Below are positions 233 through 59,091 of a DNA stretch of 64,000 nucleotides, in pieces. The DNA is from Candidatus Yanofskybacteria bacterium. Its GTDB lineage: Bacteria > Patescibacteriota > Minisyncoccia > 2-02-FULL-40-12 > GWA2-44-9. Under the pieces are notes generated by a model that did no database searches, was not told the origin of the DNA, and saw only the letters and a list, made by a program, of their open reading frames with translations. The translations under genes were made by a program, and so were the position numbers. The stretch spans positions 772 to 64,771 of the forward strand of contig CAIKUK010000014.1 of the NCBI GenBank assembly GCA_903830625.1, in the 5' to 3' direction. Numbering within the stretch: position 1 is the first letter of the stretch; each line of letters begins with the position of its first letter.

Positions 233-1500
233 ATAGAGTAAAATTAATTTTATTATTTTTTTTAATAACCGGCGTGAGCTCGGCGGTTTTTAATATCGGC
301 CATCCGTTTAATCTGAAGGGAGATGACAGTAATTATAATGATTATGCGACCAATCTAGTCTCGGGCAAGGGATATAGTCTTGATGGCAAGGAATTCAGCG
401 CCTTTCGGGAACCCGGTTATCCAATATTTATCGCAATCATTTACAAAGTGGCCGGAATAAACAATTTTTCAGCCGTGAGAGTTGTTCAAATTATTATTCT
501 AGGTTTAATTGGCTTATTTATCTACTTGAGTTTTGAGCTATATCAAAGAAAAAAATGGGGGACAATAGCGGGTATTACAGTTATTCTGATACCTTACTAC
601 GGTTACTATACGGGACAGCTTTTCTCCGAGCTTTTATTCTCTTTATTGTTAGTCGTCTCCTTCTATCTTTGCCTAAGAATATTAATCCGTAATTCTTCGT
701 CTATATGGTATGTTCTTCTCGGTTTAGTATTTGGGTACGCTGTTTTAGTGAGGACGCAACTATTACTATTCCCGATAGTAATCTGTCTATTTGCTATCTT
801 TATCCGTTCGTTCAGTATAAAAAAAATAGTCATACTCCTGGTAACATTTTTAATGGTCGTGATGAGCTGGGGTTCTTATGTATATCATAAAACGGGCCAT
901 TTTTATTTAACAACGTCCTATAGAACAGGCCTTAATTTCTATAACCGAGCTGACCGGGCGGGCTGGTCTTACGGGCAATTAATTTCTTATTATGGTTATT
1001 GGATATCTCGCAGTTCTAGTAATGGAGATATTGGAGATCGTATTAGCAATTATGAAGATAAACTTAAGGCCGGATATTATAATGAAATTGCTTCCGGCAA
1101 TTTACCAAATGAGATTCAGAATCGGAGTCTTAAAACAATATTTATACATTTTGACAAATACATATTTGGTAGTGGCATCGAACTGTTGAAGCTTAATTAT
1201 ATCGACCATATCTATGCGCCATCCGTGGATACGAGATATCTTCGGGTCGGATTTTATATTGTTTTGTATCTATTGTTTTTATACGGCATTATTAACTTTT
1301 TCAGATTCAAAAATACATCTCTGCAAACCATGGTGGTCCTAGCCGGCATATATTTGGTATATAATCAGTTATTGGTGTCTGCGTTTGATGCCATTCCCAG
1401 ATACAACACTCCGTATCTTGTTTTTTTTCTGCTAGTTGGTTTGGCTGGCCTAAGCTTAGTTTGGCCTCTAAATGAGCCAATAATAAAAAAACAAAAATAA
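229..1500 (+). CDS. GT-C fold membrane glycosyltransferase, family 39/83-like (ArnT/PMT_2-like)
   Basis: 423 aa polytopic membrane protein. The N-terminal pattern D..NY.DYA.NL.SGKGYS......F.REPGYP.F is typical of the PMT_2/ArnT family. Confidence 0.55.
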   Translation: MNRVKLILLFFLITGVSSAVFNIGHPFNLKGDDSNYNDYATNLVSGKGYSLDGKEFSAFREPGYPIFIAIIYKVAGINNFSAVRVVQIIILGLIGLFIYLSFELYQRKKWGTIAGITVILIPYYGYYTGQLFSELLFSLLLVVSFYLCLRILIRNSSSIWYVLLGLVFGYAVLVRTQLLLFPIVICLFAIFIRSFSIKKIVILLVTFLMVVMSWGSYVYHKTGHFYLTTSYRTGLNFYNRADRAGWSYGQLISYYGYWISRSSSNGDIGDRISNYEDKLKAGYYNEIASGNLPNEIQNRSLKTIFIHFDKYIFGSGIELLKLNYIDHIYAPSVDTRYLRVGFYIVLYLLFLYGIINFFRFKNTSLQTMVVLAGIYLVYNQLLVSAFDAIPRYNTPYLVFFLLVGLAGLSLVWPLNEPIIKKQK

Positions 1501-2285: not shown

Positions 2286-4095
2286 ATTGGCTAGATTAAA
2301 CGTAAAATTTTTTATTATTGAACATTGGTTCGCGTTGTTGGTCATGGTAGCCGTTGCCGGCATAGGGGGATTGCCACAAATTATAGCTAGAAATGCCCTT
2401 GGTCCAGCTGATCGAGGCATTCCATTTCTTATTAATACCGACGAAGGGTATTATTTAGGTCGGATTCATGAGATTTTAGATGGTCACACGAGCGTTTCAT
2501 CGCCGGAACTTTATGAATATAAAGATTCTATTATTTTAACCCCCGCGATGGGCGAACTGCTTTTTTATATATTACCAATGAAGCTAACTAGTCTTTCATT
2601 GTCAAACATCGTCTTTTTAAGCAGGTTTATTTTACCGGCCCTCCTTTTTTTCTTTGCCTATCTTTTTATTCTTTCTCTTTCGACTCGCTATGATTTTTGG
2701 GCACGGCTATCAGCCATCGTTGGGGCGCTTCTTATCGTGATTGGCTATGATGCCGTCGATTATCGTAATTTTATCTCAAATATTCTACATAGAACGCCAG
2801 ATTTGACTGGTCTTTTGTGGAATAGATTGGTCAATCCTATCACGGGAGGGGTAATGCTATTTGTTTTTCTATGGCTTCTTTCTCTCATCGTGAAGAGGAA
2901 AGGCCGATGGCCGGCTATTATTATTTCCGGGCTTGTTCTTTCAACTATGTCGGGTTATATTTTTTCGTTTGCCCTTGGATTAACTATTCCAGTTTTTGTG
3001 GGTCTCTATTTCGTATGGCGGAAAAATTGGCCGATGGTCTTAAGAGTTTATATTCCGGTGGCGATGGCGCTCGCCGTAAATATTTTTTATTTTGTCAGCG
3101 TTTTTTTGGCAATGAGTGGCGGAGTGCCCTTAAGTGATCCGCGTAAAGCAGGGATGTTTTTTACTCACATGCCATTAATAAACTTAATTTCACTCATTTC
3201 ACTCATCGGCGTTATTTTATGTTTTATTTTGTATTTCAGAAAAGATACTGCTCTTGAGCCAGAAAAACGCTGGTGGTTCTTTTCCCTTGCTGTAATCGTT
3301 GCCTGCGAGCTTGTCTATAATCAGCAAATTATTACAGGCCGGACTGTTTATCCCCAACATTTCGTTCAATATACAACGCCGCTTTGCATGGCCATAGGGG
3401 TAGTATTTTTGCATAATATAATCCGTCCGCGTTTAAAAAATCTGTGGCGCGTGGTCGTAATCTTTATTTTAATTATATCCGTCCTATTTGGTTGGCGGAC
3501 TCTTGGGTCTGTGCAAGCTACTATTCCGAAATATACTGAATTGCAGTCATTTTCGGGGGTCTTTGATTATCTTAATGCTAATGCTTCGAAGGATTGCGTC
3601 GTGTATGTTAGCTCCGATTATAATAATGAAATAAACCGTTTTATCAATGCGTTGACGAGCTGTAATGTTTATCATTCGTTTTATGTGTACAGTGGCGTTC
3701 CCGCTGAACGAATAATGCACAATTTTTTGGTGGATTTACGTTTGCGTGGTATTAAACCAGAAGACTTAGACAAGTATTTGAATGAAAATTCATTGTATGT
3801 GCGGGGATATTTCTTTCGAGATTGGAGAGATATGTTCGGTGAAGAAAAATGGTTGAGAACAATTGGCGACTGGGAAGAGACTAAAATCTGGCTTGCCTCG
3901 GTGGACAAGGATATAGAAAAAAGATATATAGAATATCTCAAAGGAAATCTTTATTCCGAATTAACGCGATATCGACTCGATTATTTTGTGGTTGACACGG
4001 AAAAACAGCCACAGGTAAATGATAAAAACTTTCCGTTTCTTTCTTTGAGAGGTAAGTTTGGCCAGTTTGTAGTATACGCAATAATTAAATCGTAA
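2260..4095 (+). CDS. Large polytopic membrane protein of unknown function (possible GT-C-like glycan-processing protein)
   Basis: 611 aa with more than 10 predicted TM helices in the N-terminal two-thirds and a soluble C-terminal domain; it sits in the glycan locus. Confidence 0.45.
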   Translation: MGAIKNIFKLARLNVKFFIIEHWFALLVMVAVAGIGGLPQIIARNALGPADRGIPFLINTDEGYYLGRIHEILDGHTSVSSPELYEYKDSIILTPAMGELLFYILPMKLTSLSLSNIVFLSRFILPALLFFFAYLFILSLSTRYDFWARLSAIVGALLIVIGYDAVDYRNFISNILHRTPDLTGLLWNRLVNPITGGVMLFVFLWLLSLIVKRKGRWPAIIISGLVLSTMSGYIFSFALGLTIPVFVGLYFVWRKNWPMVLRVYIPVAMALAVNIFYFVSVFLAMSGGVPLSDPRKAGMFFTHMPLINLISLISLIGVILCFILYFRKDTALEPEKRWWFFSLAVIVACELVYNQQIITGRTVYPQHFVQYTTPLCMAIGVVFLHNIIRPRLKNLWRVVVIFILIISVLFGWRTLGSVQATIPKYTELQSFSGVFDYLNANASKDCVVYVSSDYNNEINRFINALTSCNVYHSFYVYSGVPAERIMHNFLVDLRLRGIKPEDLDKYLNENSLYVRGYFFRDWRDMFGEEKWLRTIGDWEETKIWLASVDKDIEKRYIEYLKGNLYSELTRYRLDYFVVDTEKQPQVNDKNFPFLSLRGKFGQFVVYAIIKS

Positions 4096-8271: not shown

Positions 8272-9529
8272 TTTCAAATTTAGGGCAGGGGACAATGAAT
8301 TTTCCTCCGTGTTGTAAGAATAATGCTTCTCTCTCTTGGAACTCATTTATGAAATGCCAAGGCAGAATTAGCAGGTAATCTGGCTTTTGCTTCCGCATCT
8401 CCTCTTCGGAATATATTGGTATATTAGTGCCGGCAGTTTTGAGCCCAAACTTAGTCGGAGATCTCTCGGCGATACCGTCAATTAATGTATAATCAAGACC
8501 GTACCACTGAAGGAGAGTGTTGCCTTTAGTAGAGGCGCCATAGGCCCAAATACTCTTGCCCTTAGCTTTTTCTTTCTTAATAAAATCTACAGTTTGTTTT
8601 TTAAGGGCCGAGATGGATTTAAAAAACTTAACATATATAGCCGACTTATCTAGGCCTAAGGTTTTCTCATGTTCCAGTAACGACTCTACTCTAAATTCAG
8701 CAACATCGCGATAGGGAGCACTGGCAAATTCAACCGGATTGGCTTTCTTTTTGCGGGCATAGACACGGAATGAGCCACCGTTAATGTCGTTTAATTGGCA
8801 ATCAACGATATTGAATCCATGCTGGTCTAGGAGGTACTTAAAAGATGTGAGACTATAGTATTCAAGATGTTCGTGTAAAATATTGTCAAAGGCGAGCTGT
8901 TTTAACATTAAGGGCATATAACTCATCTGGATAATCCAAACGCCATTATCGTCAAGAATTTGATATACATCTTTAACAAATTTGTGAGGATCTTCCAGGT
9001 CGTAGAACATGGCAATAGACGTTACGACCCGGGCTTTCTTTTTACCGTACTTACTTTTTTTGTAGGCAGTAGCAGTAAAGTAATCCTCAATGATAAGGTT
9101 GGCGTGTTTTCTGGAATGAGTGGCGTAGTCGTTTTTTGCCGGATCAAAACCAATCCGAATCAAATCTTTATCCATGAAACTGAACATCGTGCCGTCATTA
9201 CAGCCAATATCCACAAAAACATCTCCGGACTTCATCTTGGCCAATAATCTCGTAGAGATGGCAATTTGCTCAAGTTCTTGGCGCATGGTATTGCTGATGC
9301 CGGCACGGTACCAGTATTGACGGTACATATCGTCCAATGAAGCGGTATGAGCAAGCTGGACTAACCCTGATTTTGGGGCCAAACACAATTTTAGTTCTAC
9401 TTTTTCTTGCTTTGGAACTGAGTCCTTTGCGATAAAATCGGAAAGGTATAACTCACCCAAAGAGAACAAACTAACCAGTTTTTCACCGGATATTCGACAA
9501 GTTTTTCGTTCGATCACTCTAGGTTTCAT
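8258..9529 (-). CDS. Class I SAM-dependent methyltransferase, sugar C-methyltransferase-like (TylCIII/NovU-like architecture)
   Basis: About 420 aa with a central VFVDIGCNDGTMFSFMD SAM-binding motif flanked by N- and C-terminal extension domains. The ORF-track start at 9568 is probably upstream of the true MKPRV start. Confidence 0.55.
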   Translation of the reverse strand: MKPRVIERKTCRISGEKLVSLFSLGELYLSDFIAKDSVPKQEKVELKLCLAPKSGLVQLAHTASLDDMYRQYWYRAGISNTMRQELEQIAISTRLLAKMKSGDVFVDIGCNDGTMFSFMDKDLIRIGFDPAKNDYATHSRKHANLIIEDYFTATAYKKSKYGKKKARVVTSIAMFYDLEDPHKFVKDVYQILDDNGVWIIQMSYMPLMLKQLAFDNILHEHLEYYSLTSFKYLLDQHGFNIVDCQLNDINGGSFRVYARKKKANPVEFASAPYRDVAEFRVESLLEHEKTLGLDKSAIYVKFFKSISALKKQTVDFIKKEKAKGKSIWAYGASTKGNTLLQWYGLDYTLIDGIAERSPTKFGLKTAGTNIPIYSEEEMRKQKPDYLLILPWHFINEFQEREALFLQHGGKFIVPCPKFEIIGK

Positions 9530-44722: not shown

Positions 44723-46132
44723 ATGCAAAGGACTTCTATTGTTGATATTAAAGACTTGGCCGGACAGACGGTTGATGTCTATGGCTGGGTCCATACGCGC
44801 CGAGACCACGGCAAATTAATCTTTATTGATATTCGCGACCGGAGCGGAATCGCTCAAGTTGTTTTTACTCCCGGCAATAAAGAAATTCATGAACTGGCCA
44901 GTCAGCTTCGTTCGGAATGGGTCATTCATTTGAAAGGAAAAATAAACGCCCGTCCGGAAAATATGGTCAATGCCGAAATCCCAACCGGTAAAGTGGAGAT
45001 TGAACCAATTGAACTGGAAATTTTAAATAAATCCGAAACTCCGCCTTTCCCGTTGGATACCGATGGCAAAGAGATTGGCGAAGAGCATCGGATGAAATAT
45101 CGCTATTTGGATCTGCGTCGTGAAAGAATGGCCAAGAATATGGTGGCTCGCTATAAGCTTATTAAGTTTATCCGCGATTTTCTGGATGAAAAAGAATTTC
45201 TTGAAATTGAAACTCCAATCTTGACTAAATCAACACCGGAAGGCGCGCGCGATTATGTCGTGCCTTCTCGATTGTATAGCGGTTCGTTTTACGCCCTGCC
45301 CCAATCACCCCAGCAATACAAGCAGTTGTTGATGGTAGCTGGCTTGGAAAAATATTTCCAGATTGCCCGCTGTTTCCGCGATGAAGATACCCGGGGCGAT
45401 CGTCAGCCGGAATTCACCCAGCTGGATTTAGAAATGAGTTTTGTGGAGCGCGAAGACGTGATGGCTTTAAACGAAGAGCTTTTGGTTTCCATTGTAAAAA
45501 CGCTTTATCCCGAAAAGAAAATTCAAGAAATTCCGTTCCCGCGAATGTCACATGCGGAAGCGATGGCGAAGCATAATACTGATCGGCCAGATTTGCGCGC
45601 CGATAAGGAAGACCCGAACCTTATCGCTTTTTGTTGGGTAATTGATTTCCCATTCTTTTCCGCCGAAGGCGGACCCGCCTCTGGCGGGGAAATAAAGTGG
45701 ACCTTCACGCATAATCCGTTTTCAGCGGCGAAAAAAGAATTTAGCGTTGATTTGTTGGAAGGCAAGAATATTGAAAATATCCTGACCAGTCAGTATGATG
45801 TGGTTTTGAATGGTTCAGAGATCGGCGGGGGCAGTATCCGCAATCATACTCCCGAAGGCTTAAAAGCTGTTTTTAAAGTGATGGGCTTTTCAGAAGAACG
45901 AATAAATCAAAACTTTGGCCACATGCTCGAAGCGTTTTCGTTTGGCGCCCCACCGCATGGCGGAATTGCCTGGGGCATCGATCGCCTGGTGACTTTATTG
46001 AACAACGAAATGAGTATTCGTGAAGTGATTGCCTTCCCGAAGACCGGCGATGCTCGAGACCTGATGATGGAATCGCCGTCACCGCTTGAACCGAAACAGT
46101 TGAAAGAGCTTCATATTGAGATAAAAAAATAA
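44723..46132 (+). CDS. aspS: Aspartate--tRNA ligase (bacterial-type motifs but short, lacking the GAD insertion)
   Basis: N-terminal OB fold (VYGWVHTRRDHGKLIFIDIRD), FRDEDTRGDRQPEFTQLDLEMSF, and C-terminal GGGSIR/GIDR motifs; 469 aa. Confidence 0.9.
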   Translation: MQRTSIVDIKDLAGQTVDVYGWVHTRRDHGKLIFIDIRDRSGIAQVVFTPGNKEIHELASQLRSEWVIHLKGKINARPENMVNAEIPTGKVEIEPIELEILNKSETPPFPLDTDGKEIGEEHRMKYRYLDLRRERMAKNMVARYKLIKFIRDFLDEKEFLEIETPILTKSTPEGARDYVVPSRLYSGSFYALPQSPQQYKQLLMVAGLEKYFQIARCFRDEDTRGDRQPEFTQLDLEMSFVEREDVMALNEELLVSIVKTLYPEKKIQEIPFPRMSHAEAMAKHNTDRPDLRADKEDPNLIAFCWVIDFPFFSAEGGPASGGEIKWTFTHNPFSAAKKEFSVDLLEGKNIENILTSQYDVVLNGSEIGGGSIRNHTPEGLKAVFKVMGFSEERINQNFGHMLEAFSFGAPPHGGIAWGIDRLVTLLNNEMSIREVIAFPKTGDARDLMMESPSPLEPKQLKELHIEIKK

Positions 46133-47058
46133 TGGACAGAAAGTTTGCCGGACTGACAATTGTCGTCGCGATTTTGGTGTTAGCTAACACCTATTTTTTT
46201 ATTACGATTTATCGAACACCGATTAGTGATCCTGGTCAGATTTTTCACGATAATCAAGCCTTTATTTTCCCGCCTAATCCGATTAGTTATTTGCCTGTTC
46301 TAAATACTTCAATGAATGAAATTACTTTAGACGCGAAGTCGGCAATTCTTTATGATACAAAATCAGACCGCAATCTCTTTGAAAAAAATATCAAAGAAAA
46401 ACTGCCCATCGCTTCGCTGACCAAAGTGATGAATGCGGTGGTGGTTTGGGAAAAATTCAGTCCCAACGACGTTGTCACTATTAAATCTTCAGCGGTCGGA
46501 GTCGACGGTCAGCGGAAAGATCTTTATGTCGACGAAACCCTATCGGTCCATAATTTAATGCAGATGATGTTCATTGAATCATCAAACGACGCCGCTTATG
46601 CTTTGCGTGATTATGCCGCCAGTCACAGTGTTGATTTGGTGGCGGAAATGAATAAGAAAGCATCGGAATTGGGAATGAGTGATACCCATTTCGTTGATCC
46701 GGCGGGGCTGGATGATACCGGCTATTCGACGGCCAGCGACCTGGTGAAAGGCGTGGCTTACGCTTTGCGCTACGATGCCATTTGGAGTCTCTCCCGAAAA
46801 TCAACGGCCACAATCATCTCAACTGATGGCAAGATTACCCATGAAATTAAGAGCACAGACCAGCTTTTGGGCGTTCTATCAGACATTGTTGGTGGAAAAA
46901 CAGGGTATACAGACAGTGCTCTCGGGTGTATGATTCTTATTGTTGATGCGCCTGACCAGGGTGATCGTATTATTGCCATCATTCTTGGTTCCCATGATCG
47001 CTTCGGCGACATGAAGAACTTGATTTCTTGGGCCAGGCGGGCATATAGATGGAATTAA
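46132..47058 (+). CDS. D-alanyl-D-alanine carboxypeptidase (serine-type, peptidase S11, DacA-like)
   Basis: SxxK (ASLTKVM), SxN (ESSNDAA), KTG (GKTGYT); N-terminal TM/signal. Confidence 0.8.
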   Translation: MDRKFAGLTIVVAILVLANTYFFITIYRTPISDPGQIFHDNQAFIFPPNPISYLPVLNTSMNEITLDAKSAILYDTKSDRNLFEKNIKEKLPIASLTKVMNAVVVWEKFSPNDVVTIKSSAVGVDGQRKDLYVDETLSVHNLMQMMFIESSNDAAYALRDYAASHSVDLVAEMNKKASELGMSDTHFVDPAGLDDTGYSTASDLVKGVAYALRYDAIWSLSRKSTATIISTDGKITHEIKSTDQLLGVLSDIVGGKTGYTDSALGCMILIVDAPDQGDRIIAIILGSHDRFGDMKNLISWARRAYRWN

Positions 47059-47197
47059 TCCCGCACATAACGAGCACCGGCAATACTACTGCGATACTAT
47101 GCGTATTTAATAATAATTAATCATACAGCACCGATAAGCTTGGCTAATACGAACAATCGTATCGCTAAAGCAGTTAGTGCTTGTTATGTGCGGGATG
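47058..47197 (+). repeat. 140-nt hairpin-ended intercistronic element, copy 1 (spans from the last A of the dacA TAA to the mraY ATG)
   Basis: About 86% identical by eye to copy 2 at 56759-56898. Terminal 19-21 nt inverted repeats atcccgcacataacgagcac / gtgcttgttatgtgcgggat. Confidence 0.8.
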
Positions 47198-48262
47198 ACA
47201 CCTTCTCCTCTCGAAAGTCTTAATATTTTTAATATCGTCCGGTTATTTGTTGTAACGACGACAGCTTTCTTTTTAAATCTCATTATCACTTATTTTTGGA
47301 CTAAGGTTTTGTTCACCCGCTTTAAGCCAGGCAAAGCCGTTGAGCGCCCGGACACGCCGATATTCAACAGTCTTCATCGGAAAAAAGAAGGTACGCCGAC
47401 TATGGGCGGTTTGCCGATTTGGCTGACTGTTTCGATTATCGCTCTGGGATGTTGGGCCTTAGCGACTTTTTTTGATGGCATTTGGGGGAAAATTAATTTT
47501 ATATCCCGAAGCCAAACGTTGTTGCCGTTAGGTTTCCTGATTCTGGCCGGCCTGGTCGGTATGGCCGATGATATGGTCGGTGTTTTAAAACGTGGCGGTC
47601 TCAAACTCGGCAAAAGGTTGCTGTTTTTTATCGGCGTGGCGGTTATCGGCGCGTGGTGGTTCTATTTTAAACTTGATATCAGAACCATCACCGTGCCCTT
47701 TATGGGCGAATATACCATCGGCTGGCTCTATATTCCGTATTTCATTTTTATCATGGTGGCCACGGCGTTTTCCATGAATGAGACCGACGGTCTCGATGGC
47801 TTGTCAGGGGGCGTATTCTTAACAATTTTCGGCGCGCTGGCCGCCATCGCCTTTGACCAAGGCCGTCTGGATCTTGCCATTTTTATCGGTGCCATTATGG
47901 GCGCGCTCATCGGCTTTTTGTGGTTTAACATCTATCCAGCGAAGTTTTTTATGGGCGACACCGGCGTGATGGCGCTTGGTTTCACGGTCGGCGTAGTAGC
48001 TCTACTGACAAACACGGAACTTCTTTTGCCTATCATCGCCATTATCCCGCTGGTAGAATCCGGTTCGGTCATTCTCCAGACTATTTCCAAAAAAGTCCGC
48101 CAGAAAAAAATATTTCCCTCCACGCCGATTCACCATACTTTTGAAGCTATGGGCTGGCCCGAAACCCAAATTACGATGCGTTTTTGGATGATTAACGCCA
48201 TCGGCGCCATCCTCGGTCTCATCATCTTTTTAGTCGACAGCAAACTGCCTCCATTCAAATAG
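47195..48262 (+). CDS. mraY: Phospho-N-acetylmuramoyl-pentapeptide transferase MraY
   Basis: GTPTMGG, DDxxD-like MADDMVGV and other MraY motifs. The start is taken at ATG 47195, which gives an N-terminal length like E. coli MraY; the ORF-track start at 47177 lies inside the repeat element. Confidence 0.9.
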   Translation: MTPSPLESLNIFNIVRLFVVTTTAFFLNLIITYFWTKVLFTRFKPGKAVERPDTPIFNSLHRKKEGTPTMGGLPIWLTVSIIALGCWALATFFDGIWGKINFISRSQTLLPLGFLILAGLVGMADDMVGVLKRGGLKLGKRLLFFIGVAVIGAWWFYFKLDIRTITVPFMGEYTIGWLYIPYFIFIMVATAFSMNETDGLDGLSGGVFLTIFGALAAIAFDQGRLDLAIFIGAIMGALIGFLWFNIYPAKFFMGDTGVMALGFTVGVVALLTNTELLLPIIAIIPLVESGSVILQTISKKVRQKKIFPSTPIHHTFEAMGWPETQITMRFWMINAIGAILGLIIFLVDSKLPPFK

Positions 48263-49733: not shown

Positions 49734-49799
49734 GTTGAATTAACTAACTGCTTTAAAATCTAACATATGTTAGATTTTAAAGCAGTTAGTTAATTCAAC
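49734..49799. repeat. Perfect 66-bp palindrome (33-nt arms, no spacer)
   Basis: gttgaattaactaactgctttaaaatctaacat | atgttagattttaaagcagttagttaattcaac, verified base by base; located between convergent ftsW and rpsT. Confidence 0.9.
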
Positions 49800-53769: not shown

Positions 53770-54690
53770 ATGAAATCATTTCTACAAAGCAAAGAGTGGC
53801 TTGAATTTCATAAATCTGCCGGACGCAAAACCTGGCGATTTGATGATGGTAAAGTAATTGCCAATATTATTCGGCATGATTTACCCTTGGGGATGAACTA
53901 TTTATACATTCCTCATGGCCCGGAAATTAATTTAGACTATATTACCGGCGGATTAAAAAACGAACTGGAACATTTTATATCCTATCTTAAAAATCTGGCC
54001 CGCGAACAGAAGTCTATTTTTATAAAAATCGAACCTTTGCATGATAGCGCTATTGAATTGCTTTATGGCGCTGGTTTCAAAAAATCATCCAAAAAGGTTC
54101 AGCCCAATCGGTCGGTAATTATTGATTTGGAAAAACCGGAATATGATTTACTAGGCGCGATGCATCATAAGACGCGGTATAACATCAAAGTGGCCGAAAG
54201 GAATGGCTTGAAATTTGTGACCGGCAACAATATCGATGTCTTTTGGGAATTACTAAAACACACGGCTAAGAACGATAATTTCTCCACTCATCCAAAAGAA
54301 TATTATGAAAAATTATGTTCTCCGCCAACTGGCGGAACCGGCCTTAAGACCGAAATGGTGTTTGTCCAACATGAAGGCGTTTCTATCACCGGAGCGGTCC
54401 TCCTGGCTTATGGCGACACTGTCTACTATTTGCATGGCGCGATGGATCGCAGTCCGAAGTATAAACCAATGATGGCCCCATATCTGTTGCATTGGGAAGT
54501 AATGAAATGGGCCAAGGGTTATGGAATTAAATATTATGACCTCTGGGGCATTGATGCCAAAAAATGGCCTGGCGTTACTCGTTTTAAATTGGGCTGGGGC
54601 GGCCGGCAAGTTGAATATCCCGGCGCTTTTGATATGCCTATCCGCAAGTTTTGGTTTTTAATGTATAAAATTATAAGAAAAATATTTTAA
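53770..54690 (+). CDS. FemAB family peptidoglycan interpeptide-bridge aminoacyltransferase (GNAT-fold)
   Basis: N-terminal FLQSKEWLEFHK, similar to the FemAB N-terminal pattern; two GNAT-like halves; adjacent to a Mur ligase. Confidence 0.65.
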   Translation: MKSFLQSKEWLEFHKSAGRKTWRFDDGKVIANIIRHDLPLGMNYLYIPHGPEINLDYITGGLKNELEHFISYLKNLAREQKSIFIKIEPLHDSAIELLYGAGFKKSSKKVQPNRSVIIDLEKPEYDLLGAMHHKTRYNIKVAERNGLKFVTGNNIDVFWELLKHTAKNDNFSTHPKEYYEKLCSPPTGGTGLKTEMVFVQHEGVSITGAVLLAYGDTVYYLHGAMDRSPKYKPMMAPYLLHWEVMKWAKGYGIKYYDLWGIDAKKWPGVTRFKLGWGGRQVEYPGAFDMPIRKFWFLMYKIIRKIF

Positions 54691-55961
54691 TGATCCAGGA
54701 AACAGCGCTGGATAAAATTTTATATCAGGTCAAAAAAATAATTCCTGCGTCGGTCTTTGAATTTTTTCAGCCGGCTTATCACCGGTTGTTGGCTTACGGC
54801 GGGGCGTTGCGATACGGGTTTCCATCTCACAGCATGAAGTTAATCGGCGTGACGGGCACAAAAGGCAAATCGACGACGGTTTTCATGATTACCAAAATTC
54901 TGGAAGCTTCGGGCGCGAATGTGGCGGCGATTGGGTCGCTGGGATTTAAGATTAAAGATAAAGAATGGCCGAATACGCTGAAACAAACCATGCCCGGCCG
55001 CTTCCGATTACAAAGATTTTTAGCCGAAGCTAGAAAAGCGGGCTGTGATTTCGTGGTTTTGGAAGTAACCTCGGAAGGCATTAAACAATACCGTCATCTG
55101 GGGATTAAATTTGATTCGGCGGTGTTCGTGAATATTCATCGCGAGCATTTGGAAAATCACGGCTCATTTGAAAATTACATCAAAGCCAAACAAAAATTGT
55201 TTGAGGCGACGAAACGGGTCCATATCTTAAACGCCGACGAAGCGCGCATCGCTGATTTTGATAAATTTACCGCTGAAAAGAAAATTACCTTTGGCATCAA
55301 TCAGGGCGATATCCGGCCGAGCAATGTTCTGGCCAGTGAAAGCGAATCAGAATTTGACCTGAACGGCCAGCATGTCCATTTGCATGTCGGCGGGATGTTC
55401 AACGTGCTCAATGCTCTCGGCGCCTGGGCCGTGGCTTCGGTTTATGATATTGAACCTTCCATAATCGCGGAAGCGCTTTCCAATTTACAAACTATTCCAG
55501 GCCGTCTGGAATTTGTCCAAAAACAGCCATTTAGTGTGGTGGTAGATTATGCTCACACGCCGGATTCATTGAAGATGGTTTATGAAACCCTTAAGCCGAT
55601 GAATGGCCGATTGATTTGCGTTCTGGGCGCAGCTGGCGGGGGACGAGACAAATGGAAAAGACCGGAATTCGGCGCCATTGCCGACCGGTTGGCCGATGAA
55701 ATTATTTTAACCGACGAAGACCCTTATGAAGAAGATCCGTGCCAGATTGTTTATGATGTTCAGCAAGGCATCAGTCGTACCGATCATGTGGAAGTCATCA
55801 TGGACCGTAAAGAAGCGATTGGCCGAGCTATTGCCATTGCCCGACCTGGTGATACGGTCGTCATTACGGGTAAGGGCTCAGAGGTTTCGATGGCCGTCGC
55901 CGGCAATAAGAAAATTCCCTGGTCGGACCGTGATATTGTCCGGAGCTTTCTTAATAATTAA
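54690..55961 (+). CDS. Mur ligase family protein (MurE/MurT-like, lacking the N-terminal domain)
   Basis: LIGVTGTKGKSTT P-loop, central Mur ligase domain and a C-terminal domain; 423 aa. Confidence 0.7.
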   Translation: MIQETALDKILYQVKKIIPASVFEFFQPAYHRLLAYGGALRYGFPSHSMKLIGVTGTKGKSTTVFMITKILEASGANVAAIGSLGFKIKDKEWPNTLKQTMPGRFRLQRFLAEARKAGCDFVVLEVTSEGIKQYRHLGIKFDSAVFVNIHREHLENHGSFENYIKAKQKLFEATKRVHILNADEARIADFDKFTAEKKITFGINQGDIRPSNVLASESESEFDLNGQHVHLHVGGMFNVLNALGAWAVASVYDIEPSIIAEALSNLQTIPGRLEFVQKQPFSVVVDYAHTPDSLKMVYETLKPMNGRLICVLGAAGGGRDKWKRPEFGAIADRLADEIILTDEDPYEEDPCQIVYDVQQGISRTDHVEVIMDRKEAIGRAIAIARPGDTVVITGKGSEVSMAVAGNKKIPWSDRDIVRSFLNN

Positions 55962-55999: not shown

Positions 56000-56461
56000 A
56001 TGCCCGAAGAGGTTGAAGTCCAATTAGCCAAAAAAGAAGAGCGTCCATCGTTTAGAACTGCTCACGCGCCAGGCCTATCCTGGCTGGTTGTTATTCTACT
56101 AATGATCCTCGCCGCCTTTTCGGTTATGCATTTCGGTAGTCTTCAACCGGCCGTCAGTCCTCTGCCGTCGGGCTTGGTTGATAGTTCTACACCAACGGTC
56201 CAACCTCGCATCTATACTATCTCTTATGATGTCGGCGTGTTTAGTCCGACTAACCTTCGGATTCATGCTGGTGATACGGTCCGGTTCAAGAATGATAGTA
56301 TTTTCCCCATTAGAATTGTTTCCGAAGATTTGGTCGGTTTTGATAGTATTGGCGACATTCCGCAGGGGAGTTATTTCTCGTTTACTTTTGCAGCCCGAGG
56401 CACATTCAGTTATCATAATAATCATAACAGCGGTCAAGCTGGCGCTATCATTGTCAGGTAA
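56000..56461 (+). CDS. Membrane-anchored cupredoxin-like domain protein (hypothetical)
   Basis: N-terminal TM then LRIHAGDTVRFKNDS...GTFSYHNNHNSGQAGAIIV, a beta-sandwich/cupredoxin-like pattern. Confidence 0.4.
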   Translation: MPEEVEVQLAKKEERPSFRTAHAPGLSWLVVILLMILAAFSVMHFGSLQPAVSPLPSGLVDSSTPTVQPRIYTISYDVGVFSPTNLRIHAGDTVRFKNDSIFPIRIVSEDLVGFDSIGDIPQGSYFSFTFAARGTFSYHNNHNSGQAGAIIVR

Positions 56462-56477
56462 ATTTATTTTTTCACGC

Positions 56478-56759
56478 ATGACCAATCCGCTTACGATGCA
56501 AGTTGAGTCCCGAATGGGGGCTGTATTCATTTCTTTATTGGCGATATTTTTTACGGGTGTTCTTTTCGTGGCTATCAAAAACTACGAGTCTGATCAAATT
56601 GTGCTGGATGCGTCCGTTACTCAAGTTAAATCAATGTCTTCAACTGAGCGTCAGATTATTGCTCAATGGATTAAAGATAATAATATTCCGGTACCCGACG
56701 GCCAAGGTTATCGTTACTTGATTCAGGAATATCCGAATCGGCCGTGGCTTAGTTATTAA
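56478..56759 (+). CDS. Hypothetical small membrane-anchored protein (93 aa)
   Basis: ATG 56478 in the same frame as the longer track ORF 56178 (whose 5' part overlaps the previous gene); one TM helix. Confidence 0.35.
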   Translation: MTNPLTMQVESRMGAVFISLLAIFFTGVLFVAIKNYESDQIVLDASVTQVKSMSSTERQIIAQWIKDNNIPVPDGQGYRYLIQEYPNRPWLSY

Positions 56760-56898
56760 TCCCGCACATAACAAGCACTGGCAATACTACTGCGTCACTA
56801 TGCGGATATAAATAATATTAATCATACAGCACTGATAAGCTTGGATAATACATAAAATCGTATTGCTCAAGCAGTTGGTGCTTGTTATGTGCGGGATG
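56759..56898 (+). repeat. 140-nt hairpin-ended intercistronic element, copy 2 (spans TAA of the upstream ORF to the ATG of the presenilin-like protease gene)
   Basis: Same length and termini as copy 1 at 47058-47197, with about 20 substitutions. Confidence 0.8.
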
Positions 56899-57729
56899 AA
56901 AATTCAGCCCAATCTTTTTCTGAAAGAAGCGTTAATGTTCGGCGGGACTTTCGCTCTGGGTTTGTTTGTGGCTTATCAATATGTGATTCAGCTCCCAAAC
57001 GTAGAAATTATCCAACCCTCGAACATCACTACTGGAGATATAGTTGGTTTTATTCTAATATTCGTGGCAGTTTGGTTGGTTAGTCGTATTCGGCAGTTAT
57101 CAAGTTGGGTGTTCTGGATATTCATTTCTATTTTAATTCTTGCCGGTTCCCAAATTGTGATTGCTTCCGTGGCGCCGTTCCCACTAGATATTATCGGAAG
57201 CCTGCTGATTTTGGCCACTTTTCTTGTTGCCCATACTGTTATTACGCACGATATCGCCATTGCTTTGGGTATCGCCGGTCTTGGCGCTGCTGTCGGCATT
57301 ATTATTACACCTACAGTCGGCGTCGTGGTTCTGGTCCTGATGTCCTTCTATGATATTATTGCCGTATATAAGACCCGGCATATGGTCCGGATTGCTGAAA
57401 GTATGATTCGTTCTGGCGCCGTATTCGGTTTTATTATTCCGCCCAGTACTGAACTTTTTATGGCTTCGCGGCATGAGGCCAAATCTCGAATCGGAACTGA
57501 TTTTATGATTTTGGGTTCGGGTGATATTGGTTTGCCTTTAATTTTTATCAGTTCTTTGGTCCGCCAATCTTTGCCTGAAGCGATTATCGTCGCTTGTTTC
57601 GCCATGCTCGGACTGCTTTTAACTCATATATTGTTTGTCAGCCAGACTAAACGTCAACCGATGGCCGCGTTGCCGCCGATTGCGACGATGACCCTAATCG
57701 GGTATGCCGTGGCATTGGTGATTATATAA
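56896..57729 (+). CDS. Presenilin/signal-peptide-peptidase-like GxGD intramembrane aspartyl protease (A22-like)
   Basis: YD (LMSFYDIIAVY), GxGD (LGSGDIGLP) and PAL (MAALPP) motifs in the canonical order within a roughly 9-TM protein; an alternative start is ATG 56935. Confidence 0.6.
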   Translation: MKIQPNLFLKEALMFGGTFALGLFVAYQYVIQLPNVEIIQPSNITTGDIVGFILIFVAVWLVSRIRQLSSWVFWIFISILILAGSQIVIASVAPFPLDIIGSLLILATFLVAHTVITHDIAIALGIAGLGAAVGIIITPTVGVVVLVLMSFYDIIAVYKTRHMVRIAESMIRSGAVFGFIIPPSTELFMASRHEAKSRIGTDFMILGSGDIGLPLIFISSLVRQSLPEAIIVACFAMLGLLLTHILFVSQTKRQPMAALPPIATMTLIGYAVALVII

Positions 57730-57732
57730 CTT

Positions 57733-59091
57733 ATGGCTAAACTTACTTTTTATGGCGGGGCCCAATCAGTGACAGGGTCAAACTATCTTCTTGAATCGGG
57801 AGGCGTTAAGATTCTTGTTGATTGCGGGATGTTCCAAGGTTCAAGTGATGCTGAAGAGAAGAACTACGGACCGTTTCCTTACAAGCCATCCGAACTTTCA
57901 GCCGTGTTTATCTCTCACAGCCACGCGGACCATACCGGCCGTTTGCCGAAATTGCATAAAGAAGGTTTCCGAGGAAAGCTCTATGCCACTTCTCCGACGC
58001 TGGATATGACCTTTATCGCTTTGCCGGACAATCTTTCTCTTATGGAAGATGCGGCTGCCAGAGCTAATCATTCGCCTTTATTCTCCCAGGAAGACCTGGA
58101 TGGTTTATCGGGTTTGGCTGAAGGTGTTAGCTATGGCCAGGAAATAGAACTTGGCCCTGATTTTTCGGCCGTGTTTCATGACGCCGGCCATATTTTGGGT
58201 TCGTCCATCATTGAATTCAGATTTGAAGGCAAAAAGATTTATTTCTCGGGCGATTTGGGCAATCCGCCGACTCCGCTTTTGAAACCGTTTGAATATCCGC
58301 TCGATGCGGACTATATAATTGTCGAATCTGCCTATGGCGACCGGGTTCATGAAGACCGCTCAACTCGTAAACAAAAACTCCGCTCCATTGTTAAGGACAC
58401 AATAACTAAAGGCGGCACCTTAATGATTCCGTCATTCGCGATGGAACGCACTCAAGAACTGCTTTTTGAATTGAACGATATGCATAACGCAGGAGAAATT
58501 CCTGATGTGCCGATGTTCCTTGATTCGCCGCTAGCTATCCTTTTGACCGAAGTTTATCAAAAGTATCCGGAATATTTTAATAAAGAAGCAGCCTATATCA
58601 TTAAATCGGGCGATGATTTATTTAATTTTCCTGGACTGACATATTGCCGGACCAGCGAAGAATCAAAGAATATTAACGGCATTCTCGGTCCGAAAGTGAT
58701 CATTGCCGGTTCGGGTATGTCGACTGGCGGCCGTATTCTCCACCACGAACGCCGATATCTTTCGGACCCGAATTCCACCCTGCTCTTTATTGGCTTTCAG
58801 GCCGAAGGGACGCTCGGCCGAAAGATATTCGACGGCGCCAAGGAAGTCAAAATTTTTGATGAAAAAGTGCCGATTCATTGTCGGATTGAAGCTATCGGTG
58901 GCTATTCCGCTCACGCCGACCAACCGACATTGCTGAGCTGGATTGCCAAAGGCGCCGAAGCCGGCCATTTAAAAAATGTCTTTGCGGTTCAAGGTGAAAC
59001 GGCTTCATCCGCCACTTTATGCGGTCTGATCACTGCTTCCACCCATGTTCCTGCAACCGTGCCTAATCTAAATCAAACCGTTGAGTTGTAA
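57733..59091 (+). CDS. MBL-fold beta-CASP family ribonuclease (RNase J/CPSF-like)
   Basis: ISHSHADHTG (HxHxDH), GDLGNPPTP, beta-CASP-like middle region, and a C-terminal HADQ motif. Confidence 0.75.
   Translation: MAKLTFYGGAQSVTGSNYLLESGGVKILVDCGMFQGSSDAEEKNYGPFPYKPSELSAVFISHSHADHTGRLPKLHKEGFRGKLYATSPTLDMTFIALPDNLSLMEDAAARANHSPLFSQEDLDGLSGLAEGVSYGQEIELGPDFSAVFHDAGHILGSSIIEFRFEGKKIYFSGDLGNPPTPLLKPFEYPLDADYIIVESAYGDRVHEDRSTRKQKLRSIVKDTITKGGTLMIPSFAMERTQELLFELNDMHNAGEIPDVPMFLDSPLAILLTEVYQKYPEYFNKEAAYIIKSGDDLFNFPGLTYCRTSEESKNINGILGPKVIIAGSGMSTGGRILHHERRYLSDPNSTLLFIGFQAEGTLGRKIFDGAKEVKIFDEKVPIHCRIEAIGGYSAHADQPTLLSWIAKGAEAGHLKNVFAVQGETASSATLCGLITASTHVPATVPNLNQTVEL

Follow-up and report, generated by a model that had tools for sequence, protein, structure and literature searches.

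Hairpin-ended miniature elements at start codons in Candidatus Yanofskybacteria and related CPR genomes, and small GIY-YIG nuclease elements with the same ends

Two hairpin-ended copies between neighbouring genes

The analysed stretch of DNA (the window) comprises 64,000 nucleotides of contig CAIKUK010000014.1 from a Candidatus Yanofskybacteria bacterium and carries two copies of a short hairpin-ended element, both located between genes of the forward strand. Copy 1 (47059..47195, + strand) is preceded by a dacA-like Peptidase_S11 gene (46132-47058), the TAA stop codon of which (47056..47058) contributes its last A to the pairing at the stem base, and is followed by mraY (Glycos_transf_4/MraY ORF, 47195-48262), whose ATG (47195..47197) is composed of the terminal A of the element and TG of the target. 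Copy 2 (56760..56896, + strand) is enclosed by an ORF of roughly 90 amino acids without family match (ending in ...RPWLSY; TAA at 56757..56759) and the gene encoding an SPP/presenilin-type protease (signal-peptide-peptidase, 56896-57729; ATG at 56896..56898). Both copies are delimited here by the outermost T..A pair, giving a length of about 137-140 nt; the spans in the preliminary description, 47058-47197 and 56759-56898, additionally include one base of the stop codon (its final A) and two of the start codon (TG). The exact fit from stop to start codon claimed there was reproduced for both copies: TAA (47056-47058), T, CCCGC...GCGGG (47060-47194) and ATG (47195-47197) follow each other in copy 1, and TAA (56757-56759), T, CCCGC...GCGGG (56761-56895) and ATG (56896-56898) in copy 2.

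The copies are 88% identical over 176 aligned columns including flanks and 89% identical over the element alone, close to the earlier estimate of about 86%. Terminal inverted repeats of approximately 20 nt, likewise proposed earlier, are represented by the arm ATCCCGCACATAACRAGCAC, which occurs exactly four times in the window, twice per copy, as compared to 0.00 occurrences expected from 100 shuffles. On the + strand, the 20-nt arms of copy 1 are ATCCCGCACATAACGAGCAC (left, 47058..47077) and GTGCTTGTTATGTGCGGGAT (right, 47177..47196), and those of copy 2 extend over 56759..56778 and 56878..56897. Complementarity of the arms is perfect in copy 2 and includes one G.T pair, at arm position 15, in copy 1. 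The predicted folding energies of both strands lie between -53 and -60 kcal/mol, far below those of shuffles (z between -5.9 and -10). Furthermore, the 13-mer TAAAGCAGTTAGT, previously noticed in copy 1 and in the perfect 66-nt palindrome at 49734-49799, was found with three matches at an expectation of 0.04.

Application of a covariance model to the window recovered copy 1 (47058-47196) with 139.5 bits on the + strand and 66 bits on the - strand and copy 2 with 145.7 bits on the + strand, and no further copies. A match at 54617-54713 (14 bits, E 0.49), consisting of coding sequence across a TAATG junction, was treated as chance. Promoter-like or terminator-like sites were not found inside either copy. 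Rfam searches at the gathering threshold yielded only a tRNA in the window, and those at permissive E-values returned a single chance-level sRNA match for copy 1.

The ATG at each right end represents the native start; element-free MraY homologues start at the same aligned residue (MLTPPLES..., MISSPLDT...). The ATG of mraY is preceded in the right arm of copy 1 by an in-frame GTG (47177) and an in-frame ATG (47186), and the call of an mraY-type gene in P0002 runs into the right arm (N-terminus MCGM...). Gene callers prolong mraY-type genes into the arm in this way and may overlook the elements entirely. The reported absence of a Shine-Dalgarno (SD) sequence is correct but not special to these genes, since no more than 9 of the window's 45 long ORFs are preceded by even a loose SD-like motif.

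Distribution, insertion rule and conserved fold of the family

Searches with the exact ends, requiring 12 intact nucleotides and thus sampling undecayed copies, revealed 66 copies beyond the two in the window, in genomes of Candidatus Yanofskybacteria and of related ultra-small (CPR) bacteria. The genome collection contributed 24 copies at 23 loci, 12 of these copies residing in one Yanofskybacteria MAG (PLYL01), and metagenomes contributed 42 loci. The same scan of viral contigs gave 0 matches and therefore no evidence for a phage origin. The 68 copies comprise 55 different sequences and occupy 49 sites with distinct flanks, located before unrelated genes. The elements are 126-146 nt in length, contain ORFs no more often than expected by chance and share the ends (T/C)CCCGCAC...GTGCGGG(A/G).

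At 40 of the 49 sites, GCGGG is directly followed by an ATG opening an ORF of at least 30 amino acids. At only 13 of them does a TAA at position -4 terminate an ORF that is 60 amino acids or longer. According to the preliminary description, further copies at arbitrary positions would have reduced the element to an ordinary MITE; of the relationship it proposed, the link to the start codon holds for the family, but the link to the stop codon does not and is a consequence of compact gene junctions. The element is therefore mobile, yet differs from an ordinary MITE. Accordingly, the stop-to-start fit of the two window copies is attributed to insertion at A|TG (the joint within the start codon) of compact TAATG junctions.

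At the left junction, 23 sites show no duplication of target bases; 4 nt are duplicated at 21 further sites, 5 nt at four and 3 nt at one. The duplicated bases are, for example, ATGAA, and the variable fourth base is identical on both sides in every case. Where ATG is duplicated, a short upstream ORF of 9-24 codons (MNPAHN...) is present. A single fixed duplication length was also considered, and the boundaries CCCGC..GCGGG, T..G, AT..AT and T..A all failed across sites. Orientation relative to the downstream gene agrees in 152 of 152 informative copy pairs. Since a third subfamily scores slightly better in reverse with a covariance model derived from two others, the orientation rule is proven within subfamilies only.

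Comparison of orthologous junctions revealed insertion polymorphism. The dacA-mraY junction is empty at the loci L066, L067 and L068. An association with mraY across phyla was considered for L004, located on a contig that encodes MraY, and rejected as a case of the same site, the element lying about 350 nt from the mraY start. For copy 2, the ortholog of the upstream ORF of approximately 90 amino acids terminates in a TAATG junction in L068. Between a small ORF and a beta-CASP gene, L068 reads TAT TAATG AAA, whereas L056 and L059 read TAC TAAT, element, ATG AGA. The infA-rpmJ junction is ACTAATATGAAAGTC in L048 (empty) versus TAATATGAA-T[..]ATGAAAGTG in L005 (filled). From these comparisons, the ATGAA duplication at infA-rpmJ is genuine, and no duplication occurred at TAATG. 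Moreover, the junction at a gene of 48 codons is empty in the window and in L068 and filled in L030 and L055. The earlier suggestion of a MITE that inserted into compact TAATG junctions is thus supported, including by the empty/filled pair of L068 and L056/L059: the elements are short and non-coding, possess terminal inverted repeats and are dispersed in multiple copies with presence/absence polymorphism.

The 20-bp terminal stem is backed by covariation. Among the 55 unique copies, arm positions 15-20 are paired in 96-100% of cases with 3-6 pair types, as compared to 53-92% for shuffled partners, and terminal pairing ends at position 21. Two interior helices, a and b, also covary, their strands being arranged in crossed order. 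In copy 1, strands a (GCAATAC, 47080-47086) and b (ACTGC, 47088-47092) face a' (GTATCGC, 47159-47165, one mismatch) and b' (GCAGT, 47170-47174); in copy 2, a (GCAATAC, 56781-56787) and b (ACTGC, 56789-56793) face a' (GTATTGC, 56860-56866) and b' (GCAGT, 56871-56875), all on the + strand. This structure of terminal stem and helices a and b is compatible with RNA and with single-stranded DNA alike. The proposal that the predicted stem would place the upstream stop beside the downstream start and hide the initiation region is geometrically correct.

The dacA-mraY copy is 92-93% identical among three genomes, interior included, versus 73-80% for the flanking genes. Copies at different sites reach 89-90%, and a single pair from one sample (L051 and L056) compared by eye about 96%. 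Conservation above that of the flanking genes, together with the crossed helices, suggests a constraint beyond that on a passive relic, namely a function of RNA or single-stranded DNA at the level of the host or of the element, or gene conversion.

Small GIY-YIG nuclease elements with the same ends

Elements of approximately 290 nt were identified that have the same ends, follow the same insertion rule and enclose only a gene for a GIY-YIG nuclease of 84 amino acids. They were reached by searching the fetched loci for unpaired arms, in which the arms of L060 at 8396/8673 were the sole useful case; the remaining matches, with two mismatches, were mostly chance. In L060, the family ends surround an 84-codon ORF at 8394-8686 whose product matches PF01541 (E 2.4e-12). 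Six further sites with the same junction types were found (L069/70, L071, L072, L073, L083/84, L085). At every site with a downstream gene, the nuclease ORF reads in the same direction as that gene; in L085, the contig stops in the right arm. At seven of seven sampled sites of the CATAA/CTTAA type, this ORF occupies the whole space between the ends: its ATG immediately follows the left arm, and its stop codon falls within the right arm or immediately ahead of it.

The inner arm sequence of L083, AACAAGCAC, matches the type found in the window, and that of L085, AACAGCTAC, closely resembles the AACAGCCAT type. More distant GIY-YIG genes, with 46-53% identity, are bordered by ends that have diverged yet are still related (CCCCGCACCTTT), and by a 4-bp target site duplication. 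Protein subfamily and ends diverge together, MFHVY-type proteins being associated with CATAAC and MYYIYILKS-type proteins with CCTTT.

The 84-aa protein represents a bare catalytic domain without a DNA-binding domain. Among solved structures, that of the UPF0213 protein 1zg2 is nearest to it. Its small relatives number more than 6,600 and are encoded in Patescibacteria as well as in MAGs that carry the annotation Omnitrophica or Phycisphaerae. The elements reside at many unrelated loci with short duplications; a DNA-binding domain of the homing type and a single cognate locus were not encountered. The 64-kb window itself was found to contain no GIY-YIG gene. Derivation of the MITE from the nuclease gene by deletion was rejected: local alignments of MITE interiors with the GIY-YIG elements did not exceed the level of shuffles (best score 13, shuffle maximum 11.5), and only the ends are common to both. 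An apparent RNase P gene beside the L082 element was a sequence impression that Rfam did not confirm.

Proposed nature of the elements and alternative explanations

Based on these results, the two window copies are interpreted as non-autonomous MITEs of a mobile CPR family that inserts at A|TG, with the ~290-nt GIY-YIG elements as probable autonomous partners; a probability of about 0.75 is assigned to this reading. The element would enter in one orientation, its right end being joined exactly at A|TG of a start codon, so that its terminal A and the TG of the target restore the ATG. Insertion into a TAATG overlap would yield TAA-T[...]A-TG, and the element would then seem to span the interval from stop to start. 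At other start codons, 3-5 target bases (ATGAA, ATGGA) would be copied at the left end and give rise to the short upstream ORF. The GIY-YIG protein may cut element ends, targets or both, and thereby mobilise both types of element. GIY-YIG enzymes are nucleases and none is known as a strand-transferase or as catalysing integration, which would therefore have to be provided by host repair or an unknown factor. The inserted element is presumably co-transcribed with its neighbours and may be tolerated if the terminal stem positions the downstream ATG beside the upstream stop or beside the duplicated ATG; ribosomes terminating at or translating into the left arm could then unwind the stem and re-initiate. 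RNase III could instead cut the 20-bp stem and leave a near-leaderless mRNA in a genome mostly devoid of SD sequences.

That the copies primarily constitute a cis-regulatory RNA (thermometer, riboswitch or attenuator) evolved for envelope genes, with the start codon hidden in the stem, had been offered as the alternative to a MITE. The very stable hairpin with AT of the ATG inside the stem, covariation of the terminal stem and interior helices, fixed orientation relative to the gene and conservation of orthologous copies beyond that of the flanking genes would agree with this explanation. It is nevertheless very improbable, since the downstream genes are unrelated (among them rpmJ, the gene of a beta-CASP RNase type and the 48-aa ORF), the orthologous junctions of close relatives (L066-L068, L048) are empty, targets are duplicated, the ends are shared with nuclease-bearing elements, and Rfam offers no match, whether the gathering threshold or permissive E-values are applied. 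The same conservation (92-93% across three genomes versus 73-80% for flanking genes) and the conserved crossed helices could also mean that the dacA-mraY and protease copies have been domesticated as spacers, kept by selection because they set the expression ratio of their neighbours through coupling, RNase III processing or mRNA stability; moreover, most genes have no SD sequence, so that structure near the ATG should matter. Such domestication is considered unlikely, as non-orthologous copies are almost equally similar (89-90%), which fits recent spread or gene conversion too, and relatives do without the element at the same junctions.

Two further explanations concern the machinery. An ordinary MITE could owe its movement to a conventional transposase acting in trans (DDE, HUH or other), the GIY-YIG genes being passengers or invading homing endonuclease genes. 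GIY-YIG proteins are not known to catalyse integration, the 84-aa protein is a catalytic domain lacking a DNA-binding domain, the MITE interiors are unlike the nuclease gene, and most genomes were inspected as 8-kb pieces, in which a transposase could be missed. Against these points stand the nuclease ORF that fills the space between the ends at 7/7 CATAA/CTTAA-type sites, the co-divergence of protein subfamily and end sequence, and the inner arms that match between nuclease elements and MITE subfamilies, so that this explanation is regarded as quite unlikely. A site-specific recombination site similar to integron attC sites or to REP/REPIN sequences, folded into a hairpin for a tyrosine recombinase or a RAYT, would account for an imperfect hairpin-forming palindrome of attC-like size, and the arm sequences ACATAAC and GTTATGT are each one mismatch from RYYYAAC/GTTRRRY, the attC core consensus. 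This is scarcely credible, however, given flanking housekeeping genes in conserved synteny rather than cassette arrays, a stem reaching 7-9 bp outside the core-like boxes, arms without the GTAG head of REPs and no integrase or RAYT seen at the inspected loci.

Among known systems, the Correia elements (CREE/NEMIS) of Neisseria are MITEs of 100-155 bp with long terminal inverted repeats that are dispersed beside genes and co-transcribed with them, and the hairpin in their transcripts can be processed by RNase III, altering expression of the neighbour. The CPR element resembles them in size, in its long terminal inverted repeats and in its position beside genes. In contrast to Correia elements, which duplicate TA and have no start-codon or orientation rule and no known partner gene, it has unrelated ends, the A|TG joint, a duplication of 0 or 3-5 nt and ends shared with GIY-YIG elements. 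Free-standing GIY-YIG homing genes (phage T4 seg genes, fungal mitochondrial ORFs) occupy gaps between host genes, share their orientation and depend on host transcription, and some mobile mitochondrial GIY-YIG ORFs duplicate the end of the neighbouring gene. The small, co-oriented GIY-YIG gene between host genes is a common feature. Homing endonucleases, however, possess DNA-binding domains and move by repair into the same locus of naive genomes, and their genes have no inverted-repeat ends, short target duplications or miniature derivatives, whereas the CPR element places a bare 84-aa catalytic domain between inverted repeats of 18-20 nt at many loci.

IS200/IS605 elements with their PATEs and the REPIN/RAYT system are similar in their very small size, hairpin-dependent recognition, orientation-specific and precise insertion beside a short target and non-autonomous hairpin derivatives. 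They differ in using HUH (Y1) transposases, subterminal hairpins and no target duplication, as opposed to one long terminal stem, no HUH gene and a duplication of 3-5 nt at half of the sites. Mycobacterial MIRUs are intra-operon repeats oriented with translation, whose ends overlap the neighbouring stop and start codons, and have been read as preserving translational coupling. Their ends and orientation thus correspond to those described here, but MIRUs are tandem direct repeats with small ORFs, are not palindromic and have no nuclease. Rickettsia palindromic elements likewise are palindromic mobile repeats of reduced genomes that survive where coding capacity is spared; they reside in frame inside ORFs and are translated, whereas the CPR element lies outside ORFs at the start codon. 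Full-text literature searches, with thin coverage of subscription journals, found no description of such elements, and the family of GIY-YIG genes within inverted repeats appears to be undescribed so far.

A broader reading, to which slightly less than even odds are given, is that the elements belong to a new superfamily of minimal transposable elements outside the recognised transposase classes. Its autonomous form of ~290 bp, a bare GIY-YIG gene of 84-86 codons between inverted repeats of 18-20 nt ((T/C)CCCGCAC...), would undercut the smallest known insertion sequences. Lineages of the superfamily would target expression signals, one of them A|TG of start codons, restoring the start and, at TAATG, also the stop, and another TTGA|C within the -35 box of promoters, so that transcription and translation signals would be common to element and host gene. 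The conserved pseudoknot-like fold of the MITEs would possibly be needed for mobilisation or for translatability of the downstream gene.

Should the preferred reading of mobile MITEs with GIY-YIG partners be true, a selfish element persists in CPR genomes that have almost no spare intergenic DNA, and the start codon would be the one position at which inserted DNA does no harm, stop and start being rebuilt. A bare GIY-YIG domain combined with inverted repeats would then represent a candidate for a new mobility module. Furthermore, the fixed geometry of stop codon, 20-bp stem and start codon would lend itself naturally to tests of termination-reinitiation, or of expression that depends on RNase III, in organisms whose genes are mostly without SD sequences.

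Stop and start codons at the element borders

Both window copies were confirmed to extend from a stop to a start codon, as the preliminary description had stated. In copy 1, TAA (47056-47058) and one T precede CCCGC...GCGGG (47060-47194) and ATG (47195-47197); in copy 2, the same succession comprises TAA 56757-56759, T, CCCGC...GCGGG 56761-56895 and ATG 56896-56898. The copies are 88-89% identical and lie between a Peptidase_S11 gene and mraY (Glycos_transf_4; copy 1) and between a ~90-aa ORF without assigned family and a gene encoding a signal-peptide-peptidase/presenilin-type protein (SPP; copy 2). Four occurrences of the 20-nt arm were counted in the window against none expected by chance, and folding energies amount to -53 to -60 kcal/mol on either strand (z -5.9 to -10). 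No Rfam family matched the element, and a covariance model built from the element family detected no third copy in the window. Judged from alignments, the right-end ATG is the native start in both cases, since MraY and protease homologues in element-free genomes start at the same aligned residues.

Further copies were searched by their ends alone (CCCGCACATAAC, a gap of ~92-126 nt, GTTATGTGCGGG). Bacterial genomes, one per species, yielded 24 further copies, nearly all from Candidatus Yanofskybacteria or other CPR MAGs and 12 of them from the Yanofskybacteria MAG PLYL01; metagenomes added 42, and viral contigs none. Since the scans accepted only copies whose 12-nt ends were intact and spaced by 92-126 nt, decayed or longer copies are under-sampled in these numbers. 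By its MraY homologues, the window itself belongs to Yanofskybacteria. In total, 68 copies represent 55 unique sequences and 49 flank-distinct sites, orthologous sites of different genomes sometimes being scored separately; most genomes were represented by pieces of 8 kb or less, and gene calls were ORF-based. At 40 of the 49 sites, an ATG immediately after GCGGG opens an ORF of at least 30 aa, and at one further site only a short ORF. The remaining eight have no ATG there; in two of these, L004 and L031, it follows two bases later, within a duplicated TATG. A TAA one base ahead of CCCGC, ending an ORF of at least 60 aa, was found at 13/49 sites. Placement at a start codon is thus the rule, of which the stop-codon relation forms a subset, so that the proposed stop-to-start placement held for further copies as regards the start and only in part as regards the stop. 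Genes located 3' of the element are mutually unrelated (rpmJ, a beta-CASP nuclease-type gene, a 48-aa ORF, a 988-aa ORF and others).

A third MITE type with ends ATCCCGTACGAAGTAGC was observed at the start of a 211-aa ORF in L028 (11383-11495; ATGA-AT[..]AT-GAAT, [..] denoting the element), and the start-codon rule thus reaches beyond CATAAC ends. Moreover, L022 (4485-4709) contains a nested pair, a CCCCGCACCTTTT-type MITE within a second MITE of the same type.

Orthologous junctions with and without the element

Empty counterparts were identified for several filled junctions. Between dacA and mraY, L066 (TAAATATG), L067 (TAATATG) and L068 (TAAAACAAATG) are empty, and the window, L010 and L051 read TAAT[..]ATG. 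The junction between a small ORF (...RPWL.Y*) and the beta-CASP gene is TAT TAATG AAA in L068 and TAC TAAT[..]ATG AGA in L056/L059. The infA-rpmJ junction is empty in L048 (ACTAAT ATGAAAGTC) and filled in L005 and four others (TAAT ATGAA-T[..]ATGAAAGTG), and the 48-aa gene is preceded by no element in the window and L068, and by ATGAAA-T[..]ATGAAAAAT in L030 and L055. Of the two possibilities raised initially, insertion of a MITE into a TAATG junction is directly supported by the L068 and L056/L059 pair, and a gene-specific regulatory RNA as the element's primary nature was excluded, since orthologous junctions without the element exist. The window feature is rated as a MITE.

For junction scoring, the outermost T..A pair was counted as element. 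The right junction then invariably reads ...GCGGGA|TG, and the left side shows duplications of 0 nt (23 sites), 4 nt (21), 5 nt (4) or 3 nt (1); no choice of element boundary gives a single duplication length. The variable duplication base (ATGA vs ATGG, also ATGTGT) is identical on both sides in every case and is therefore target-derived. A subfamily with an outermost C..G pair exhibits 4-nt duplications TATG or TCAA, and where such an element entered an ATG, the rebuilt start is GTG (L083). At zero-duplication sites, an upstream ORF mostly ends at the junction or just within the left arm, where CATAA supplies a stop in one frame. The family to which the non-autonomous window copies belong inserts in a single orientation at A|TG, restoring the start codon and, where the target is TAATG, also the stop.

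Gene order around copy 2 (window 56000-59091) differs among relatives: the window and L002 show small ORF, element, SPP and beta-CASP; L056/L059 small ORF, element and beta-CASP; L068 small ORF directly followed by beta-CASP; and L067 has SPP and no small ORF. Recombination between copies could have caused loss or relocation of the SPP gene.

Orientation, covarying helices and sequence conservation

Interiors were co-oriented in 152/152 informative copy pairs, with orientation set by the downstream gene. This holds inside each of four subfamilies; between subfamilies, interiors are too diverged, and a model from two subfamilies gives a third one a slightly higher score in reverse. The terminal stem comprises exactly 20 bp. 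Arm positions 15-20, left free by the search pattern, are 96-100% paired with 3-6 pair types (3-4 Watson-Crick), compared with 53-92% for shuffled partners, and pairing drops to ~25% at positions 21-22. G.T and A.C intermediates are roughly equally frequent, and stem data therefore do not decide on strand or on RNA versus DNA.

The interior contains two additional covarying helices. Helix a is represented by GCAATAC/GTATTGC, GCAGTAC/GTACTGC, GCGGTAC/GTACCGC, GCAATAG/CTATTGC, GTCTC/GAGAC and GTTTC/GAAAC, helix b by ACTGC/GCAGT, GTTGC/GCAAC, AGTGC/GCACT and TATTGC/GCAATA. They cross between 47080-47092 and 47159-47174 in copy 1 and between 56781-56793 and 56860-56875 in copy 2. The strand order a, b, a', b' implies predicted folds that are pseudoknot-type or mutually exclusive; it is not attainable by a plain DNA palindrome. 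By position-anchored scanning, full pairing was found in 38% (a) and 42% (b) of copies, as against 5% with segments from other copies. In the minimum-energy prediction, the partner of a' is instead ATAATAC, a local sequence closely resembling a.

As the preliminary description had observed, copy 1 shares the 13-mer TAAAGCAGTTAGT with a palindrome at 49734-49799. Helix strand b' (GCAGT) is part of this 13-mer. The perfect 66-nt palindrome directly follows ftsW, ahead of a terminator-like hairpin. It looks like another small insertion, since the orthologous ftsW-rpsT spacers (L067, L068) hold the terminator only.

The dacA-mraY copies of three genomes (window 47058-47197; L010 6477-6615; L051 3052-3190) are 92-93% identical, versus 73-80% for adjacent coding sequences, and copies at different sites in one sample (L051, L056) are ~96% identical by eye. 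This excess of identity and the crossed helices do not fit a passive relic. Together they point to a host-level role, to selection for competence in mobilisation, or to continuing turnover or gene conversion; domestication by the host has a modest probability.

Probable GIY-YIG partner elements and possible consequences for host genes

Looking for unpaired arms led to an element in L060 (8394-8686) with the same ends (TCCCGCACATAAAC...GTTTATGTGCGGGA) 290 nt apart, located as TAAT[..]ATG between two co-oriented genes. It encloses an 84-aa ORF corresponding to a GIY-YIG catalytic domain (PF01541, E 2.4e-12; closest solved structure 1zg2, UPF0213 protein). Homologues at six further sites (L069/70, L071, L072, L073, L083/84, L085) share this architecture: the ORF starts just past the left arm and stops in or just before the right arm, ~14 nt ahead of the host start. 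Junctions are of the MITE types, either unduplicated (TAA|, TAG|, AAA|) or duplicated (TGTG, TGGA, TGAA). Furthermore, the inner, subfamily-specific arm sequence agrees between nuclease elements and MITEs (L083 CCCCGCACTTAACAAGCAC and window TCCCGCACATAACAAGCAC; L085 TCCCGCACATAACAGCTAC and the ...AACAGCCAT MITE subfamily). No resemblance to the nuclease gene was seen in MITE interiors, and the 64-kb window contains no GIY-YIG gene.

More distant GIY-YIG genes (46-53% identical) have related, diverged ends, CCCCGCACCTTT...AAAGGTGCGGGG, with a 4-nt TTGA duplication (L020 6206-6503; L074 1172-1472), as does a MITE (L020 1720-1850). In both nuclease elements, the right flank starts with a TTGAC(-35)-N16/17-TATAAT-like promoter, in L074 upstream of rpsL; these may represent a sister lineage targeting promoters instead of start codons. 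A profile search retrieved >6,600 small GIY-YIG proteins (E below 1e-8) from Patescibacteria and from MAGs annotated as Omnitrophica and Phycisphaerae. The tRNA-Gln of L018 (380-452) is adjoined at its 5' end by a small GIY-YIG gene (region 380-820, minus strand), and upstream of this gene there is a partial copy of the tRNA 5' end; in sequence, the acceptor stem (TGCGGGA/TCCCGCA) equals the element's outermost 7 bp. A 99-aa GIY-YIG gene in L054, devoid of CCCGCAC-type ends, is preceded by a ~37-nt tandem direct repeat (GCTAAAGCTACGGAATAGCAAGTTATCCATATGCTAT; 2600-2660, minus strand).

In behaviour, the element resembles Correia elements as a hairpin MITE presumably co-transcribed with genes, MIRUs as a repeat fitted between stop and start, and IS200/IS605-type hairpin elements in orientation specificity and precise junction, and its probable partner recalls free-standing GIY-YIG homing endonuclease genes, but defining features of each are lacking. 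The part of the full-text literature covered describes neither inverted-repeat-flanked GIY-YIG mini-elements nor start-codon-seeking MITEs. A new minimal transposon class is tentatively proposed, with a probability of about 0.45.

The GIY-YIG protein presumably mobilises both forms. As the protein consists of the catalytic domain alone, the folded ends, instead of a DNA-binding domain, may provide recognition. Integration may rely on host repair or microhomology, which, speculatively, might generate the variable left junction. As to how the host may tolerate the element, it is probably transcribed through, since it contains no promoter-like or terminator-like site. Through the 20-bp stem, the downstream ATG would come to lie beside the preceding stop codon or, elsewhere, beside the duplicated ATG, which retains the sequence that originally preceded it. 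Ribosomes terminating at the stem base, or translating a short MNPAHN... ORF into the left arm, could open the stem and re-initiate. Alternatively, RNase III would cut the stem and leave a short-leader mRNA, which fits this genome because an SD-like motif accompanies only 9/45 long ORFs in the window. A TATAAT-like box lies within ~10-30 nt upstream of many window starts, which suggests frequent short-leader or leaderless mRNAs in this genome.

The nuclease-bearing form, too, seems designed for this translational coupling. Gene calls for mraY begin within the right arm, either as MCGM... (protein P0002, MAG PLYL01) or at a GTG at 47177 (window 47177-47197), since the reading frame of the arm always coincides with that of the host ATG. 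Systematic errors in start annotation are thus likely for element-bearing genes wherever the element is present.
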